Shown here piece after piece: positions 31,262-38,295 of a DNA stretch of 64,000 nt (its first letter is position 1; every line of letters begins with the position of its first letter). Source of the stretch: Thermoanaerobaculia bacterium (GTDB lineage: Bacteria > Acidobacteriota > Thermoanaerobaculia > Multivoradales > Multivoraceae); the NCBI GenBank assembly GCA_963666565.1, contig OY762911.1, positions 3,808,001 through 3,872,000 on the forward strand, given 5' to 3'. Below the pieces are notes generated by a model. The model was not told the DNA's origin and ran no database searches. It was given only the letters and a program-made list of their open reading frames with translations. The translations under genes were made by a program, and so were the position numbers.

Positions 31262-31832
31262 CCTCGAACCCGCAACCGGGGCCGTCCACCTCACCGAAGC
31301 CGAGCTGGAGGCGGGCTTCCCGCACGTCCTGGCCTCCCCCGCCGACGGCGGCACGCTGGAGATGATCGTCCGGCGTCCCGGCGTCGACCGGCGCGAGCCG
31401 GTCGACGAGGGGCGGCTGACCGCCGAGGAGGGCCTCGAGGGAGACACATGGAAGGTCCGGCGCGGCTACTCGCTGCCCGACGGCTCGCCCGACCCCGACG
31501 CGCAGCTCACCCTGACCAACGCGCGCTTCGCCGCCCTGATCGCCGGCGACCGCGAGCGGTGGCCGCTCGCCGGCGACCAGCTCTACGTCGACCTCGACCT
31601 GAGCGAGAGCAACCTGCCGCCCGGGACCCGGCTCCGCATCGGCGGCGCGACGCTGGAGGTCACGGCCCTCCCCCACACCGGCTGCGCCAAGTACCGGAAG
31701 CGTTTCGGCGTGGAGGCGCTCAAGTTCACCGCCACGCCCGAGGGCAGGTCGCGCCATCTGCGCGGCATCTACGCCCGCGTCGTCGAGCCCGGAACGGTGC
31801 GGGTCGGCGACACGATCCGAAAGGCGGGCTAG
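31251..31832 (+). CDS. MOSC domain protein
   Basis: GLEGD, LAGDQLYVDLDLS..NLPPGTRL.IG, PHTGC.K, RGIYARVVEPG.VRVGD. Confidence 0.9.
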   Translation: MCADLEPATGAVHLTEAELEAGFPHVLASPADGGTLEMIVRRPGVDRREPVDEGRLTAEEGLEGDTWKVRRGYSLPDGSPDPDAQLTLTNARFAALIAGDRERWPLAGDQLYVDLDLSESNLPPGTRLRIGGATLEVTALPHTGCAKYRKRFGVEALKFTATPEGRSRHLRGIYARVVEPGTVRVGDTIRKAG

Positions 31833-31837
31833 CGCCC

Positions 31838-32248
31838 ATGGGGGTCACCAGGGGAGTGCGGCAGCTCGTCGCCGAGGCCGACGCCGCGGTCGAGACGGTC
31901 ACGGTCGCCGAAGCCCGCGAGCGCCAGGCCGGCGGCGCGCTCATCGTCGATCTGCGCGACATCCGCGAGCGGGCCCGCGAAGGCTTCATCCCCGGCGCCT
32001 ACCACGCCCCGCGGGGGATGATCGAGTTCTGGGTCGACCCGGAGAGTCCCTACTACAAGGAGATCTTCGGCAGTGGCCGGGAGTTCATCTTCCATTGCGC
32101 CAGCGGCTGGCGCTCCGCGCTCGCCACGAAGGCGGTCCAGGACATGGGGCTCGCGCCCGTGTCCCACATCGGCGGCGGCTTCACGGCCTGGAAGAAGGCC
32201 GACGCGCCCGTGCTGCGAACGGAGGACGGCCGGGCGCCCCGCGCTTGA
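31838..32248 (+). CDS. Single-domain rhodanese
   Basis: VDLRD.RE...G.IPGA.H.PRG, HCASGWRS, GGF.AW. Confidence 0.92.
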   Translation: MGVTRGVRQLVAEADAAVETVTVAEARERQAGGALIVDLRDIRERAREGFIPGAYHAPRGMIEFWVDPESPYYKEIFGSGREFIFHCASGWRSALATKAVQDMGLAPVSHIGGGFTAWKKADAPVLRTEDGRAPRA

Positions 32249-32273
32249 CAGCAAGGTACCGATTCCTTAGCCT
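32245..32273 (+). promoter_or_regulatory. Sigma70 promoter of the lysW operon
   Basis: TTGACA (32245-32250), 17-bp spacer, TAGCCT (32268-32273). Confidence 0.8.
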
Positions 32274-32301
32274 CTGCGCCCGTTCAAGGCCTGTACGCAA
32301 G

Positions 32302-32391
32302 ATGCCCGTCCTCCTCACCTCCGCCTCGACCGCCCCTCTCGCCAAGGGTCGCCGCGGCGGCGCGAAGCGTCCGGGACAGGATCCTGGATGA
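32302..32391 (+). CDS. Putative leader peptide MPVLLTSASTAPLAKGRRGGAKRPGQDPG (29 aa)
   Basis: ATG about 20 nt after the predicted TSS; Lys and Arg codons clustered just before the attenuator hairpins; weak SD. Confidence 0.55.
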   Translation: MPVLLTSASTAPLAKGRRGGAKRPGQDPG

Positions 32392-32421
32392 CCCGCTAGA
32401 TCGAGAACGCATCTTCTCCCG

Positions 32422-32463
32422 GAGGCCGGCCATCCAGAAGGATGAGCCGGCCTCTCTGTTCTT
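32422..32463 (+). terminator. Leader terminator (attenuator) hairpin upstream of lysW
   Basis: GAGGCCGGC-CATCC-AGAA-GGATG-A-GCCGGCCTC followed by TCTGTTCTT; lies between the promoter and the first gene. Confidence 0.7.
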
Positions 32464-32511
32464 GAAACGCGCCTCTTGCCGAAGTGCAAACCCAACCGAG
32501 GAGACAGCGCC

Positions 32512-32697
32512 ATGGAACTCCAGACCGTCGACGCCGACAGCGAGTGCCCCGAGTGCTTCGAGTCCGTGAGGCTCGAGGCCGTGATGCAGCATGAGATCGT
32601 CCAGTGCGCCGGCTGCGGCATCGACCTCGAAGTGATCGAGCTCGACCCCGTCACCCTGGAACTCGCACCGGAAGAAGAAGAGGACTGGGGCGAGTAG
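32512..32697 (+). CDS. lysW: Amino-group carrier protein LysW
   Basis: GAGGAG RBS; CPEC...CAGC zinc ribbon; acidic; C-terminal EEDWGE. Confidence 0.96.
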
Positions 32698-32709
32698 CGG
32701 AGCCGAAGA

Positions 32710-33600
32710 ATGCGCATCGGAGTCCTCTACAGCCGGGTCCGGCCCGAAGAGAAGCTGCTGTTCGCCGAGTTCGAACGGCGGCGGGCCGACGTGGAGCCGA
32801 TCGACGACCGCGGAGTCGTCCTCGCGCTCGGCGGCGGCAGCGCGATCGAGCCGTCCTTCGACTTCGACGTCGTGTTCGACCGTTCGCTCAGCTACAGCCG
32901 CGCCCTCGTCAACCTGCGCGTCCTGGCCGACCGCGGCGTGGCGACGGTCAACCCGGTGGACGTGGTGGAGAACTGCGGCGACAAGGTCCGCACCTCCAGC
33001 CTGCTCCAGGCGGCCGGGCTGCCGACGCCCGCAACCCGGGTGGCCTCGACGCCGGCGGCCGCGCTGCGGGCGATCGAGGAACTCGGCTACCCGGTCGTGA
33101 TGAAGCCGACCGTCGGATCCTGGGGCCGCCTGGTGGCCCGCATCAACGACCGGGACGCCGCGGAAGCGCTGCTGGAGCACAAGAGCACGCTCGGCTCCTA
33201 CCAGCACTCCATCTTCTACCTGCAGCGCTACGTCGACAAGCCGGAGCGCGACATCCGGGCCTTCGTCGCCGGCGGCGAGACCCTCTGCGCGATCTACCGC
33301 CGGGCGCCGCACTGGATCACGAACACGGCGCGCGGCGCTTCCACCGGGAACTGCCCGGTGACGGCCGAGATCGACGACCTCTGCCGGCGAGCGGCAGGCG
33401 CCGTCGGGGGCGGCCTGGTGGCGGTCGACCTGGTCGAAGACCCCGACGACGGCCTGCTCGTGCTGGAGGTCAACCACACGATGGAGTTCCGCAACTCGAT
33501 CGAACCCACCGGCGTCGACATCCCCGCGCGGATGGTCGACTTCGTCGAGCGGGTGGCCAGCGCCGGCTGGGACGCCGCGCACGACCGGGAGGGAGCATGA
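32710..33600 (+). CDS. lysX: Alpha-aminoadipate--LysW ligase (RimK-family ATP-grasp)
   Basis: [39 protein letters not shown]. Confidence 0.94.
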
Positions 33601-33662
33601 CCGCGCGCGCCGGCATCCCCGCGTCGACTCCGGGCGGCGGACCCGCGGAGGTCGCGGCATGA
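33597..33662 (+). CDS. 21-aa bridging mini-ORF between lysX and lysY
   Basis: [21 protein letters not shown]; ATGA overlaps with the lysX stop and the lysY start; SD-like GGGAGG upstream. Confidence 0.4.
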
Positions 33663-34741
33663 CCCTGCGCGCGAGCGTCGTCGGCGGCTCCGGCTACGCG
33701 GGCGGCGAGCTGCTCCGGCTGCTGATCGGCCACGGCGGCTTCGAGGTCGCGCAGGTCACCTCGCGGCGGCTGGCCGGTTCGTTCGTCCACTTCACGCACC
33801 CGAACCTGCGCGGCCACACCGACCTGCGCTTCTCCACCGCGGACGAACTCGAGCCCTGCGACCTGCTCTTCCTCTGCCTGCCGCACGGCGCCGCCGCCAG
33901 GAACATCGACGGCTACGCCGCGCTCGCGCCGAAGGTCATCGACCTCTCGGCCGACTTCCGGCTGCGTTCCGCGGAGGCATGGGAGGAGTGGTACGGCGCC
34001 GCCCACGCCGCGCCGGAATGGCTCGACCGGTTCGTCTACGGCTTGCCCGAACTCGACCGCGAGGCCGTGGCCGGCGCCGGCCGCGTCAGCGGCGTCGGCT
34101 GCAACGCGACGGCGACCCTGCTCGGCCTGCTGCCCCTGCTCGAACCCGAGCTCCTGGCGAGCGGCCTGGTCGACTGGCGGCGCGGCGTCGTCACGGAGCT
34201 GAAGGTCGGCAGCAGCGAGGGCGGCGCCTCGTCGTCGGACGCCTCCCACCACCCCGAACGGTCCGGCGTCGTGCGGAGCTTCCGGCCGACCGGCCACCGG
34301 CACACGGCGGAGGTCGAGCAGGCGTTCGCCCACCGAGGCGTCGAAGCCGCCGGCAACGTCCACCTCTCGGTGACCGCGGTCGAGATGGTGCGCGGCGTCC
34401 TGGCCACCAGCCACCTGTTCCTCGGCGGCGAACGTGCCGGCAAGGCCGCCGAACGCGATCTCTTCCGGGCCTTCCGGGCCTTCTGCCGGCGACATCCCTT
34501 CGTCCGCCTCGTGAAGGACCGGCGCGGCATCCACCGCTATCCCGAACCGAAGATCCTCGCCGGCAGCAACCACGCCGAGGTCGGCTTCGACCTCGATCCG
34601 AAGACAGGCCGCCTGGTCGTCCTCTGCGCCATCGACAACCTGATGAAGGGCGCGGCCGGCAACGCGGTCCAGTGCGCCAACCTGATGTGCGGGTACGAAG
34701 AGACCCGGGGCCTCGACTTCCTCGGCCTTCATCCCGTCTAG
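33659..34741 (+). CDS. lysY: [LysW]-aminoadipate-6-phosphate reductase (ArgC family)
   Basis: VGGSGYAGGELLRLL, HPNLRG, DLSADFRL, YGLPE, GCNAT, HHPERS, IDNLMKGAAG.AVQ. Confidence 0.93.
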   Translation: MTLRASVVGGSGYAGGELLRLLIGHGGFEVAQVTSRRLAGSFVHFTHPNLRGHTDLRFSTADELEPCDLLFLCLPHGAAARNIDGYAALAPKVIDLSADFRLRSAEAWEEWYGAAHAAPEWLDRFVYGLPELDREAVAGAGRVSGVGCNATATLLGLLPLLEPELLASGLVDWRRGVVTELKVGSSEGGASSSDASHHPERSGVVRSFRPTGHRHTAEVEQAFAHRGVEAAGNVHLSVTAVEMVRGVLATSHLFLGGERAGKAAERDLFRAFRAFCRRHPFVRLVKDRRGIHRYPEPKILAGSNHAEVGFDLDPKTGRLVVLCAIDNLMKGAAGNAVQCANLMCGYEETRGLDFLGLHPV

Positions 34742-34772
34742 GAGCTTGCGCCTGGCGGCGGTAACCACGGAA

Positions 34773-35675
34773 ATGGCCGAAACCAGCTCACACAACCCCG
34801 GCGAACCGCTCGTGATCAAGGCCGGCGGCGGCAAGGCTCTCGACCTGGAGGCGATCGCCGCGGACATCGGCGCCCTGTGGCAATCCGGCAAGCCCGTGGT
34901 TCTCGTCCACGGCGGTGCCGAGACCACGAACGAGGTCGCCGAGCAGTTGGGACATCCGCCGCGGTTCGTGACCAGCGAGAGCGGCTACTCCAGCCGCCGG
35001 ACGGACCGCCGGACGCTCGAGATCTTCGAGATGGTCTACTGCGGCCTGCTGAACAAGCGCTGGGTCGAACTCCTGCAGCGCCGGGGCGTTCAGGCGGTCG
35101 GCCTGTCGGGACTCGACGGCCGGCTATTCGAGGGCCGCCGCAAGGACAAGCTGCGCATCCGCCACGCCGGCCGGCGCATGGTGCTGCGCGACGACTGGAC
35201 CGGCACGGTCGAGAAGGTGAACGGCGAGCTCCTGCGCCTGCTGCTCGATGGCGGCTACCTGCCCGTGCTGACGCCTCCCGGCGCCTCCTTCGACGGCGAG
35301 GCTGTGAACGTCGACGGCGACCGCGCCGCCGCCGCCATCGCCGCCGCCCTGGGCGCTCCGACCCTCGTCTACCTCTCGGGCGCGCCGGGCCTGCTCGCCG
35401 ACTTCCCCGACGAGGACTCCCTGATTCCCCGCTTCCAGGTCGCCCGCGACGCGCTCTCCGGCGCCGCGCCCGAGGCCGGGCTCGAACCCCTGGCGGCAGC
35501 AGCCGAGGACCGGATGAAGAAGAAGGTGCTCGGCGCCGCCGAGGCGCTCCGCGGCGGGGTCGACCGGGTTATCTTCGCCGACGGCCGGGTCGACGGACCG
35601 GTTCGGGCCGCTCTCGACGGCGCCGGCACGCACGTCGTCGTCAGGCAGGCGAACAGGCAGGAGGAACCGCGATGA
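34773..35675 (+). CDS. lysZ: [LysW]-aminoadipate kinase (ArgB family)
   Basis: VIKAGG, LVHGG, SG.SSR.TD, GLSGLDG, NVDGDRAAA, MKKK. Confidence 0.92.
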   Translation: MAETSSHNPGEPLVIKAGGGKALDLEAIAADIGALWQSGKPVVLVHGGAETTNEVAEQLGHPPRFVTSESGYSSRRTDRRTLEIFEMVYCGLLNKRWVELLQRRGVQAVGLSGLDGRLFEGRRKDKLRIRHAGRRMVLRDDWTGTVEKVNGELLRLLLDGGYLPVLTPPGASFDGEAVNVDGDRAAAAIAAALGAPTLVYLSGAPGLLADFPDEDSLIPRFQVARDALSGAAPEAGLEPLAAAAEDRMKKKVLGAAEALRGGVDRVIFADGRVDGPVRAALDGAGTHVVVRQANRQEEPR

Positions 35676-36952
35676 GCGCCACCACAGCGGATGCGGGGAA
35701 CGCGGGCCGGCAGGCCCGCGCCACGGCCGGCGCACGCGGCGCGCCGGATGCCGGCCAGAAGGCCGGCGCGCCGACGGCCGCCGCGCCTGGCGCGGAGGAC
35801 CGCCGCCTCGGAACCTGGGCGCCGCGCAAGCCGACTCCGCCGATCGTCCGCGGCGAGGGCTGCGAGCTCGTCGCTGAGAACGGCGACCGCTACCTCGACC
35901 TGACCGCCGGCTACGGCGTCTGCTGCCTGGGCTACAACCACCCGGCAATCGTCCGGGCGTTGACGGCCCAGGCGGAGCGGCTCACGTACTGCCCGATGAA
36001 CATGCCCAGCCGGGACCGGGCCGAGTACGTCGAGGCGCTGGCCGCCGTCCTGCCCGACTCTCTCGACCGGGTCTTCCTGTGCAACAGCGGCACGGAAGCG
36101 GTCGAGGGGGCGCTCAAGTTCGCCGCGCTGGCGACCGGCCGCAGCCGCACCGTCGCGCTTCGCAACAGCTTCCACGGCCGCACCCTGGGAGCGCAGGCGA
36201 CGATGTGGAACCCCGCCGCCCGCAAGCCCTACGCCGGGCTGCTCCACGACAACGTCTTCGTCCAGCCGGAAGCCGAGGCCATAGACGAAGCGGTCGACGA
36301 AGACACGGCTGCGCTGATCCTCGAACCGGTCCAGGGCGAGGGCGGCGTCAACGTGCTGAGCGACGACGTGCTGCTCGCGGCCCGCCGCGCCTGCGACCGG
36401 CACGGGGCGTTGCTCGTCCTCGACGAGGTGCAGACCGGCTTCGGCCGTTGCGGAACCTGGTTCGCCCACCGCACGACGCCCGGCCTGGAGGCCGACCTGA
36501 TGCCGCTCGCCAAGGGCATCGGCGGCGGCTTCCCGCTCGGGGCGATCGCCTACGGCGAGCGCGTCGCGGCCGCGCTTCGGCCCGGTTGCCACGGCTCGAC
36601 CTACGGCGGCAATCCGCTCGCCTGCGCCGCCGGTCTGGCCGTGATCGAGACCCTGCGCGCGCTCGACCTGCCGGCCAGGGCGGCCCGGGTCGGCGAGGCC
36701 TTCCTGGGCGCCCTGCGCGACCGACTGGCGTCGAACCCGCGAGTGCGCGAAGTGCGCGGCCGCGGCCTGATGCTGGGCGTCATGCTGCGGCAACGCGCTG
36801 GACGCTACCTGGCCCGCCTGACTTCGGAGCACCGGATCCTGGCGCTGCCCGCCGGGCCGAACGTGATCCGGATGCTGCCGCCCCTCGTCGTCGGCGAGGA
36901 CGAACTCGAGCGCGCCGCGGACGCCCTCTCGGCGGTGCTCGCGGAGGACTGA
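35672..36952 (+). CDS. lysJ: [LysW]-aminoadipate semialdehyde transaminase (ArgD family)
   Basis: GAGGA RBS with ATGA overlap; YLD..AGYGV, CNSGTEAVEGALK, FHGRT, EPVQGEGG, DEVQTGFGR, AKGIGGG, HGSTYGGNPL. Confidence 0.93.
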   Translation: MSATTADAGNAGRQARATAGARGAPDAGQKAGAPTAAAPGAEDRRLGTWAPRKPTPPIVRGEGCELVAENGDRYLDLTAGYGVCCLGYNHPAIVRALTAQAERLTYCPMNMPSRDRAEYVEALAAVLPDSLDRVFLCNSGTEAVEGALKFAALATGRSRTVALRNSFHGRTLGAQATMWNPAARKPYAGLLHDNVFVQPEAEAIDEAVDEDTAALILEPVQGEGGVNVLSDDVLLAARRACDRHGALLVLDEVQTGFGRCGTWFAHRTTPGLEADLMPLAKGIGGGFPLGAIAYGERVAAALRPGCHGSTYGGNPLACAAGLAVIETLRALDLPARAARVGEAFLGALRDRLASNPRVREVRGRGLMLGVMLRQRAGRYLARLTSEHRILALPAGPNVIRMLPPLVVGEDELERAADALSAVLAED

Positions 36953-36954
36953 GG

Positions 36955-38295
36955 ATGGCGAAGACGGACGCCTGCGACCGGCACGCTGCCGACGCCGCGA
37001 CGCCGGACCGGCCGGCGGCGAGGCGCTTGCCGTGGCCGAAGCCGCCCGGCCCGGCGAGCCCGCCCGGCCAGCGCGACGCGGTCCGCGACCGGGCCGAGAT
37101 CGAACTCGTGCGCGGTCTCGTCGCGGTGCCGTCGCTGTCGCGGCACGAGGCCGCCGCCAGCGGCTGGCTGGCGGCCGAAATGGAGGCACGCGGCCTGGAG
37201 CGCTGCCACGTCGACGGAGCGCTGAACGCGGTCGGCGAGCTGGGCGATCCCGCAGCGTCCCGCCTCGTCGTCCTGCTCGGACACATCGACACCGTGCCGG
37301 GGAACATCCCGGTCCGGATCGAGGACGAGGGCTCCCCCCAAGGCATCCTGCACGGCCGGGGGTCGGTCGACGCGAAGGGACCGCTCGCCAGCTTCGTCGC
37401 GGCTGCCGCGCGGCTCGGCGGCGACTGGGCCCGCGCCCACGACCTGCGGGTGATCGTCGCCGGCGCGACGGAAGAGGAGGCGGCGAGTTCCCGCGGCGCC
37501 CACTTCCTGCTGAAGCGGCTGAACGGCCGCGACGAGCCGGCGCCCGACGTCTGCGTCATCGGCGAACCCAGCCACTGGCACCGGCTGACCCTCGGCTACA
37601 AGGGGCGCCTGCTGATCGACCTGATGGCCCGGCGGCCGAGCAGCCACACGGCGGGCCCGGAGGTCGGCGTCGGCATCACCGCGTTCGACCTCTGGCGGCG
37701 GCTGGAACGGGTGGCCGAGCGGAACGGCGGCCGGACGCCGTTCGAACGCGTCCTGCCCAGCCTGCGGTCGATCGGGACCACGAGCGACGGCCTCTACGAC
37801 ACGGTCCGCGCCGACTACGGCCTGCGGCTCCCCGTCGACTTCGACGCCGGCGCGCTGGTCGACGAACTGACGGACTGGTTCCGCGGCGCGGCGGCCGACA
37901 TCGACGGGCCGCTCTTCTCCGACCTCGACCCGGACCGGGCCACCGGCACGATCCGCTGCGAGCGGGGCGACGCCAGCCTGGAACTCAGCCTGCGCGGCTA
38001 CGAGATCGGGGTGCGTGCCGACCGGCACTCGCCACTGGTCCGGGCGTTCCTCGCCGCCATCCGCGGCGTCGGCGGACCCGACGTCGCGCCGAAGTTCGTC
38101 GTCAAGACCGGTACCTGCGACATGAACATCGTCTGGCCGGTCTGGCGCTGCCCCATCCTTGCCTACGGTCCGGGGGACAGTACACTCGACCACACACCCG
38201 ACGAGCACCTGGATCTGAACGAGTACCTGCTGGCGGTCGACACCGTGGAACTGGCGCTGAGGAACCTCGCCGCGGCCATGCCGGCGGCCGGCTGA
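36955..38295 (+). CDS. lysK: [LysW]-lysine hydrolase (M20/ArgE family)
   Basis: LLGHIDTVPG, GRGSVDAKG, EEE..S.GA, IGEPS, GYKG, KTGT.DMN, YGPGDS.LDHTP.EH. Confidence 0.93.
   Translation: MAKTDACDRHAADAATPDRPAARRLPWPKPPGPASPPGQRDAVRDRAEIELVRGLVAVPSLSRHEAAASGWLAAEMEARGLERCHVDGALNAVGELGDPAASRLVVLLGHIDTVPGNIPVRIEDEGSPQGILHGRGSVDAKGPLASFVAAAARLGGDWARAHDLRVIVAGATEEEAASSRGAHFLLKRLNGRDEPAPDVCVIGEPSHWHRLTLGYKGRLLIDLMARRPSSHTAGPEVGVGITAFDLWRRLERVAERNGGRTPFERVLPSLRSIGTTSDGLYDTVRADYGLRLPVDFDAGALVDELTDWFRGAAADIDGPLFSDLDPDRATGTIRCERGDASLELSLRGYEIGVRADRHSPLVRAFLAAIRGVGGPDVAPKFVVKTGTCDMNIVWPVWRCPILAYGPGDSTLDHTPDEHLDLNEYLLAVDTVELALRNLAAAMPAAG

Follow-up and report, generated by a model that had tools for sequence, protein, structure and literature searches.

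The enterobacterial trp, his, leu, thr, and ilv leaders are the classical attenuators. Other leader RNAs known to respond to lysine are the lysine riboswitch (L-box) and the T-box. The lysine cluster of Thermus thermophilus, which encodes the alpha-aminoadipate pathway, is reportedly controlled by an attenuator with a lysine leader peptide. Here we analyse a comparable arrangement in the Acidobacteriota. The stretch under study, in the following called the window, comprises 64,000 nt of contig OY762911.1 from a Thermoanaerobaculia bacterium (positions 3,808,001 to 3,872,000 of the forward strand), and the element in question is a region of 267 nt on the plus strand before lysW (32245–32511). 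We propose, with a probability of about 0.75, that this region is a ribosome-mediated transcription attenuator which senses Lys-tRNA and controls the operon lysWXYZJK. In what follows G000 is the genome of the window, other G numbers are comparison genomes, and L numbers are loci or leaders.

The candidate attenuator starts with a promoter-like site (32245–32273, plus strand like all features given here for the window) composed of TTGACA (32245–32250), a 17 nt spacer, and TAGCCT (32268–32273). The stop codon TGA of the upstream gene (32246–32248) falls within the -35 hexamer, and most leaders of the genus retain TTGACA and TA(G/C)CCT (alignment A1). An open reading frame (ORF) of 29 codons plus TGA begins 28 nt after the -10-like hexamer and encodes the putative leader peptide MPVLLTSASTAPLAKGRRGGAKRPGQDPG (32302–32391, ATG at 32302 and TGA at 32389–32391). 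It contains the Lys codon AAG twice, as codon 15 (32344–32346) and as codon 22 (32365–32367), the latter within GGC GCG AAG being the proposed stall site, and Arg codons at 32350 (CGC), 32353 (CGC), and 32368 (CGT).

Folding and comparison with the relatives define four segments in the conventional order. Segment 1, CGTCCGGGA (32368–32376), provides the 5' strand of the 1:2 hairpin. Segment 2 (32382–32399), which reads TCCTGGATG and runs on into ACCCGCT, holds the stop codon and has two possible partners, segment 1 and the 5' arm of the terminator. In the former case TCCGGGA (32370–32376) faces TCCTGGA (32382–32388) in a hairpin that extends over 32368–32390; in the latter CTGGATG (32384–32390) is complementary to CATCCAG (32431–32437). 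Segments 3 and 4 form the predicted terminator hairpin (32422–32454), which has 14 pairs, a bulged A at 32445, and the loop AGAA, and is followed by the U-rich tail TCTGTTCTTG (32455–32464) with six T out of 10 positions. The tails of the relatives are richer in T, for example TTTTCTTCTTTC. A small hairpin GAGAA/TTCTC (32403–32418) appears in the RNAalifold consensus and is nested in the 2:3 structure; it belongs to a spacer that hardly varies in the genus. The AAG at 32365 abuts segment 1, and segment 2 begins 17 nt past this codon. The features named in an initial annotation of this DNA were all present where it had placed them, and its leader ORF with 1:2/2:3/3:4 geometry and a terminator before lysW held up as well: the ORF is conserved, its stop codon lies inside segment 2, the AAG adjoins segment 1, and the pairings are in register.

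A consensus scan of the window called neither the promoter nor the terminator, because the -10 hexamer matches TATAAT at only three of six positions and the stem has a bulge. This miss carries no weight, since stems with a bulge or a mismatch fall outside the strict criteria of the scan, which also missed an obvious hairpin with a T-run in L243.

We infer transcription start, translation, stalling, termination, and read-through, and the mechanism would work as follows. Transcription would start past TTGACA/TAGCCT, and the 29-codon frame would be translated. With plentiful Lys-tRNA the ribosome would reach the UGA within segment 2 and cover this segment; the 3:4 hairpin would form and transcription would end before lysW. 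With scarce Lys-tRNA the ribosome would stall at an AAG codon, chiefly at the invariant GCG-AAG at 32365, covering segment 1 and leaving segment 2 free. The free segment 2 would pair with the emerging 5' arm of the terminator (2:3) and thereby block 3:4 formation, and RNA polymerase would enter lysW. A second leader, described below, would act likewise on hcs-lysT-lysU-HICDH (HICDH, homoisocitrate dehydrogenase), the first half of the alpha-aminoadipate pathway.

Taken alone, the sequence of the window exceeds chance only marginally. The case rests on the relatives: throughout the genus, and also in the paralogous leader, conservation extends to the element, the ATG, the position of the stop codon, the AAG codons, and the complementarities, which stay in register. 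The genus sample consisted of 42 genomes. Its first draw comprised 25 lysW loci (L001–L025) and included 24 other genomes of the genus, all of which contained lysW. The leader was found at 21 of the 25 loci, with an ATG frame of 29–31 codons in 20 of these 21. A covariance model built from the core of the lysW leader (R1) was used to scan the genomes of the genus and gave strong matches (111–156 bits) to the lysW leader in 36/42. The distinct lysW-type leaders number 32, and 30 of them contain an ATG frame of 27–31 codons; ATG and TGA are invariant in both main length classes (29 and 31 codons). Conservation is much stronger in the part running from GGC GCG AAG to the terminator than at the beginning of the frame or downstream of the terminator. 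In a loose pattern scan of genome contigs the leader was found in 9 of 120 loci among the matches listed.

The codons were tabulated for 52 ORFs, namely lysW-type ORFs of the 29-codon class (n = 18) and the 31-codon class (n = 9) and hcs-type ORFs (n = 25). The AAG of the Gly-Ala-Lys motif is invariant in all 52, that is, in 18/18 and 9/9 lysW-type ORFs and at the matching place in 25/25 hcs-type ORFs. Codon 15 encodes Lys in 17 of the 18 ORFs of the 29-codon class; the sole exception, L019, belongs to the other sequence group and is out of register. As the genomes are related, these Lys codon counts are consistent rather than independent. At the RNA level, the terminator stem is invariant in 21/21 lysW leaders apart from a G-C/G-U exchange at its base, and the five pairs of the GAGAA/TTCTC hairpin are likewise invariant in 21/21, an invariance that is unexplained. 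In the sister genus, G193 carries a lysW leader that is plainly homologous to the one in the window, with a peptide ending in GGAKRRCAKPVFVEKRGLHPSG and the same hairpin. Two leaders, L017 and L170 (G024 and G045), have a tandem repeat of about 18 nt (read as ...GPSLSDGTLSSDG...) in place of the start of the leader frame; their frame is open for 87–99 codons and the core from Gly-Ala-Lys onward is intact.

The model R1 gave a second, weaker full-length match (23–34 bits) directly upstream of the gene for homocitrate synthase (hcs) in 36 of 42 genomes including G000. The copy in G000 lies outside the window at C1:2790706–2790838 (feature span C1:2790682–2790845; loci L148, about 1440–1640, and L220). 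It consists of a TTGACA-17-CACAAT site, a 30-codon frame encoding MTQSTITPSLVKPLHKRGVKPRLQDWVPIA with three AAG codons, and the hairpin GGCCGGCCATCCAG...GGATG.GCCGGC with a T-rich tail, the stem being identical in sequence to that of the lysW leader. Downstream follow homocitrate synthase (TIGR02146, 491 bits), the large and small subunits of homoaconitase, and a homoisocitrate dehydrogenase-like gene (hcs-lysT-lysU-HICDH). An ATG frame of 30–34 codons is present in 30 of the 36 hcs-type elements. Their stop is fixed at codon 31 and alternates between TAG (21) and TGA (4), while the preceding codons vary. In the hcs leader L216 an internal duplication gives an open frame of 82 codons. Three further matches of R1 (L210, L213, and L215) lie inside coding DNA and were rejected as false positives. 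We propose that both halves of the pathway constitute one lysine regulon governed by paralogous leaders.

The alternative pairings were compared with a control in which the partner strand was slid by 1–3 columns. Over the 30 sequences of the lysW structure set (alignment A4) the 1:2 helix is 93.0% paired, against at most 52.2% when slid, and the 2:3 helix 87.6%, against at most 52.5%. The latter consists of 7+2+3 pairs between 32384–32397 and 32424–32437 and encloses the GAGAA/UUCUC hairpin. In the hcs structure set (alignment A3, 27 sequences) the 2:3 helix has 12 pairs and extends into the terminator loop; it is 95.1% paired, compared with at most 51.6% in the slid control. The 1:2 helix of the hcs leader is built on the GGGCGC of Gly-Ala. 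Two compensatory double changes were observed in the hcs 2:3 helix: the one in L198 links a base of the frame to a base of the loop, and the one in L192 alters segments 2, 3, and 4 together. In the lysW 2:3 helix a single sequence has one double change, which is not above what shuffling gives. The 2:3 duplex of the hcs leader in G000 is better than that of 200/200 shuffles.

In G000 the predicted energy of the 1:2 hairpin of the lysW leader is -13.4 kcal/mol, and the terminators reach -30.1 (lysW) and -21.9 kcal/mol (hcs). The whole leader (32280–32470) folds at -81.6 kcal/mol (z = -2.68 relative to 200 shuffles). With a ribosome placed at the invariant AAG, the RNA 3' of it is predicted to fold into the 2:3 structure in both leaders (lysW -21.8, hcs -20.6 kcal/mol). 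With the ribosome at the stop codon the RNA 3' of it folds at -4.3 (lysW) or -0.8 kcal/mol (hcs) and leaves the terminator arm unpaired. The 2:3 structure also forms without a ribosome in equilibrium folds; therefore the clearly discriminating state is the ribosome at the stop codon. The initial annotation had suggested folding the leader with and without masking by the ribosome. The RNA 3' of the ribosome positions agrees with the proposed switch, but the masked folds of the whole leader were equivocal for G000. The start-codon region (32299–32316, AAGATGC..., GATGCCCGTCCTCC) is complementary to GCATCTT (32408–32414) and to the 5' arm of the terminator (32422–32435), and this pairing occurs in the minimum free energy folds. 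It may be a chance effect of GC-richness, or the region may be a fourth player in the switch.

The initial annotation had supposed that one attenuator reads both Lys and Arg as the two end products of LysW chemistry. We therefore considered a dual sensor in which AAG-CGT is read and starvation for either amino acid relieves termination. Given the base composition, a frame of 30 codons should hold 0.34 Lys and 4.5 Arg codons. The lysW-type leaders contain 2.29 Lys and 2.86 Arg, the hcs-type leaders 2.73 Lys and 2.12 Arg per leader, and the proteins of the operon itself consist of 1.8% Lys and 9.1% Arg. Lys codons are thus enriched 7–8 fold in the leaders, whereas Arg codons are at or below background. 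Beside the invariant Lys, the 52 tabulated ORFs have a second, nearly invariant Lys and often a third, and 64/66 and 71/72 of the AAR triplets are in the ATG frame.

In favour of a dual sensor, the codon right after the invariant AAG encodes Arg in every tabulated lysW-type leader (CGT in 18/18 of the 29-codon class, CGC or CGT in 9/9 of the 31-codon class). However, this sole invariant Arg of the lysW leader lies within segment 1 and is constrained as RNA anyway. A Lys-Arg pair was also read in the peptides of 9 out of 12 leader lineages, a count that is not independent as the lineages are related, but the leaders of G030, G081, and G194 have no such pair and the Lys-rich stretch of G194 contains no Arg. 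No Arg is fixed in the hcs leader: Pro can stand in place of R13 and R17, and 5 of 25 sequences have Trp instead of R22. The positions of R13 and R17 are the two sides of the hcs P1 hairpin, whose closing pair is G-C (19) or C-G (6) and covaries. Of the conserved K/R codons and covarying stems to be looked for in related leaders, Lys is conserved, Arg is not invariant in the hcs copy, and none of the 24 predicted pairs covaries in the lysW structure.

The genes of the pathway also bear on this question. The operon lysW-lysX-lysY-lysZ-lysJ-lysK (32512–38295, plus strand) was assigned with NCBIfam models and their curated cut-offs. LysW (32512–32697) matches TIGR01206 with 65.2 bits (cut-off 53.2), and its gene is preceded by the Shine-Dalgarno sequence GAGGAGA (32498–32504). 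LysX matches TIGR02144 with 322.3 bits (cut-off 275.6), and LysY falls in the argC family (328.8 bits). LysZ is by its scores of the aminoadipate-specific type, with its best match to the [LysW]-aminoadipate kinase model NF010659 with 388 bits (cut-off 223), compared with 155.3 bits for the bifunctional model NF010662. LysJ (389 bits, cut-off 700) and LysK (314.8 bits, cut-off 363) both have a model of the LysW pathway as best match and are both below its cut-off. A separate argC-argB-argD-argH cluster is present in G000, with 410 bits for argC, and a second LysX/ArgX-like ligase was not found in this genome by tblastn. The separate cluster and the type of LysZ contradict the claim that LysW chemistry has two end products here. 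Together with the Arg codon counts and the varying Arg positions of the paralogue they make the dual sensor unlikely, and the leader appears from its codons to sense lysine rather than arginine.

In G000, a genome that is 97% complete and consists of a single contig, dapA was not found and lysA reached only 42.6 bits (cut-off 297.9). The alpha-aminoadipate route is therefore probably the only route to lysine in this organism. With the diaminopimelate route apparently missing, one may ask what serves the cell wall instead. In their longest frames lysJ and lysK (35672–36952 and 36079–38295) open with about 55 and more than 100 low-complexity residues, respectively, rich in Ala, Gly, Pro, and Arg and outside the family models. 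The family match of LysJ begins at residue 58, and the true start codons of lysJ and lysK are uncertain.

Beyond the genus, lysW was present in 56 of 300 sampled genomes of the order and in 12 of 89 genera. In another family (G030, G083, and G081) short frames with six to nine Lys codons, a GC hairpin, and a run of 7–10 T stand just before lysW. Their Lys-rich leader peptides are ...RKQGKKKVEKKTEQKLDPGRGLFV in G030, MNVQTPVAAAEAKKVTKAKKAKRSAGAGGGLPT in G083, and ...ESKKKIEKKKAEKKIKPDPGERLFV in G081. In five genomes from other genera of the family to which the window belongs (G194, G195, G199, G200, and G201) lysW is found some 3 kb past hcs and in the same orientation. This spacing fits a single operon hcs-lysT-lysU-HICDH-lysW, lysW following by eye the end of a dehydrogenase-like gene. 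In all five hcs is preceded by a short frame that contains Lys codons and by a hairpin followed by a T-run; the number of Lys codons is 2–6 in G195, G199, G200, and G201 as counted by script and about eight in G194 as read by eye. The simplest history would be a single ancestral operon with one lysine leader that was split in two in the genus, with a copy of the leader retained on either half. Reading of the upstream DNA showed no leader at the lysW loci of G198 and G282, and in G197 the hairpin is found about 300 nt upstream of lysW.

Across the phylum homocitrate synthase was above the cut-off in 9 of 301 sampled genomes, a tally that includes the unpublished genomes G321, G346, and G441, all of them non-carriers. 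A Lys-rich frame before hcs was absent in all three carriers outside the family (G322, G304, and G390, which belong to another family). In G304 and G390 (loci L253 and L254) TTGACA...TATAGT overlaps the inverted repeat ATTGCAC...GTGCAA before hcs, which looks like a putative site for repressor-type control of the same pathway. In G322 a promoter-like site followed by repeated ATTGCA words stands before hcs.

Several observations weigh against the proposed attenuator. Those concerning translation come first. Neither the lysW-type nor the hcs-type leaders have a Shine-Dalgarno sequence 5–10 nt upstream of the leader ATG, whereas lysW and hcs themselves have strong ones. A near-leaderless start is conceivable for the hcs leader, whose ATG lies 10 nt after the -10-like CACAAT, but not for the lysW leader with its distance of 28 nt. 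There are just two or three Lys codons, which are not adjacent, and related genera have more. Variation is even across the codon positions, and the synonymous and nonsynonymous counts are flat and near those of shifted frames; these counts neither support nor refute translation and give no sign of selection on the peptide. At 70% GC open frames come easily: the leaders have 0–1.04 stops per sequence in their other two frames.

A second group of adverse points concerns the RNA. Of 200 dinucleotide shuffles, 12 equal or surpass the 2:3 duplex of the lysW leader in the window (-18.5 kcal/mol). The absence of compensatory changes in the lysW consensus structure (0/24) goes along with too little variation. 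One position of the hcs 2:3 helix, that of the L192 type, has a C.A mismatch in 8 of 27 sequences, and the hcs leaders L194, L196, and L201 lack a good antiterminator. In the masked folds of the whole leader the terminator arm of G000 was paired to 0.66 in all four states, because the start-codon region competes for this arm. The spacer 32392–32409 (CC.G.TAGATCGAGAAC) is near-invariant in 30 leaders of the genus and has stop codons in both other frames (TAG at 32397 in the window); as judged from the alignments, spacer and stem are more constrained than an attenuator would seem to need, and the spacer is unexplained.

The distribution of the element adds to these points. A strong R1 match to the lysW leader is absent in 6 of 42 genomes (G010, G012, G019, G021, G051, and G053), and in all four of them whose upstream regions were read (G010, G012, G019, and G021) the leader is absent. 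At five hcs loci (G004, G017, G019, G047, and G050) the promoter and the frame are lost and the hairpin is kept. These loci are hard to square with an efficient terminator, since transcription of hcs would have to cross the intact hairpin.

The loci without a strong lysW-leader match are L006, L014, L020, L025, L244, and L245 (G012, G019, G021, G010, G053, and G051, respectively). In G010, G012, G021, and G051 lysW follows after a short spacer behind an upstream rhodanese-like gene, and G019, which has no lysW leader, also lacks the frame of the hcs leader. At the five hcs loci with the hairpin only (L208, L212, L211, L200, and L214 in the order of the genomes given above) the hairpin lies just past the upstream stop codon and about 25 nt before the ATG of hcs.

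Taken at face value, part of these findings could mean that the terminator or the antiterminator is stabilised by a trans-acting factor such as an RNA-binding protein, or by the small ligand of an undescribed riboswitch, and that the frame is incidental or secondary. The genus-wide invariance of stem and spacer, with the stem shared by both paralogues, exceeds what base pairing needs and would fit such control, as would the missing Shine-Dalgarno sequence, the equal variation of the codon positions, and the five genomes that retain the hairpin alone before hcs. But the ATG, the in-frame AAG codons, and the place of the stop are retained amid diverging bases, and in other genera a Lys-rich frame is again joined to a terminator although those leaders resemble the present one little or not at all in sequence. 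Moreover, G193 of the sister genus does not conserve the spacer, and scans of 31500–33500, 32230–32530, and the hcs leader against 4227 Rfam families (E up to 10) gave no relevant match for either leader, only chance-level hits to unrelated families. We consider control by a factor or ligand instead of the ribosome quite unlikely.

It could also be argued that there is no regulation and that the hairpin is an ordinary terminator or a stability element, the ORF and the complementarities being by-products of 70% GC. The marginal result of the shuffling for the window, the largely open other frames, and the several genomes of the genus without a leader fit such a view. Against it stands the position of the hairpin, which lies within the 5' leader of lysW, after a conserved promoter-like site and about 175 nt past the upstream stop codon. 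In addition, the element exceeds its flanks by far in conservation, is duplicated onto the other operon of the same pathway, and is enriched in Lys codons 7–8 fold. We regard the absence of any regulation as very improbable and retain the Lys-tRNA-sensing attenuator as the preferred explanation.

Within an attenuator of this kind the Gly-Ala-Lys-Arg/Pro core (GGC GCG AAG C..), which is the same in both paralogues and lies amid remarkably constant RNA, could be more than a hungry codon, either as a Lys-Arg pair through which the switch would react to both basic amino acids or as an arrest motif acting through the nascent peptide or the mRNA. We consider this doubtful. If true, an arrest motif would let a leader with two or three Lys codons and no Shine-Dalgarno sequence act as a sensitive switch, and the two copies of the leader would be kept identical by concerted evolution after the split of the operon.

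Two further candidates were examined and rejected. A T-box was considered on account of a TGGT after the stop codon in most relatives, but this motif is absent from the leader in the window, from three others, and from the hcs leaders. An anti-Shine-Dalgarno role was considered for TCTCCT in the spacer, which could pair with the ribosome-binding site of lysW; this is not kept in the second sequence group. A contig from an RNA library, belonging to a relative about 91% alike, covers 31933–33575; such a contig cannot reveal transcript ends, strand, or level, and DNA may be present in the library.

A full-text literature search, which covered few subscription journals, returned no description of a lysine leader peptide in Acidobacteria or of the Thermus leader. 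Term searches of PMC3356886 and PMC12998189 gave no instance of 'leader' or 'attenuat', and in passages of PMC5584792 lysW designates a transporter, which is a different gene. The acidobacterial example is thus apparently undescribed so far, while the mechanism itself is of a known classical type. The analysis offers a testable control mechanism for the LysW/alpha-aminoadipate lysine pathway in a little-studied group of the Acidobacteriota. It also points to a natural experiment: related genera have one operon with one Lys-rich leader, the genus has split the pathway with paralogous leaders on both halves, and some species have since lost one or both of them. Rfam holds no family for a lysine leader, and the alignments made here could seed one.

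Compared with the known systems, the locus would share with the L-box and the T-box that lysine-related genes are controlled by the choice between a terminator and an antiterminator in the 5' leader. It differs from them in having no Rfam match and in being short and mostly taken up by the frame. With the enterobacterial attenuators it has in common the 1:2/2:3/3:4 geometry, a stop codon placed such that the terminating ribosome would cover segment 2, and regulatory codons beside segment 1. In contrast to these the leader frame has no Shine-Dalgarno sequence and the regulatory codons are few and not adjacent. The default of the trp leader, by which no translation means termination, is not evident here, because the 2:3 structure forms without a ribosome in equilibrium folds. 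The lysine leader of Thermus concerns the same pathway (hcs and LysW-dependent genes) and is said to follow the same logic of a short Lys frame, alternative hairpins, and a terminator. What sets the present case apart from it is the occurrence in the Acidobacteriota, the two operons each with a paralogous leader, and a signal of only two to three spaced AAG codons.

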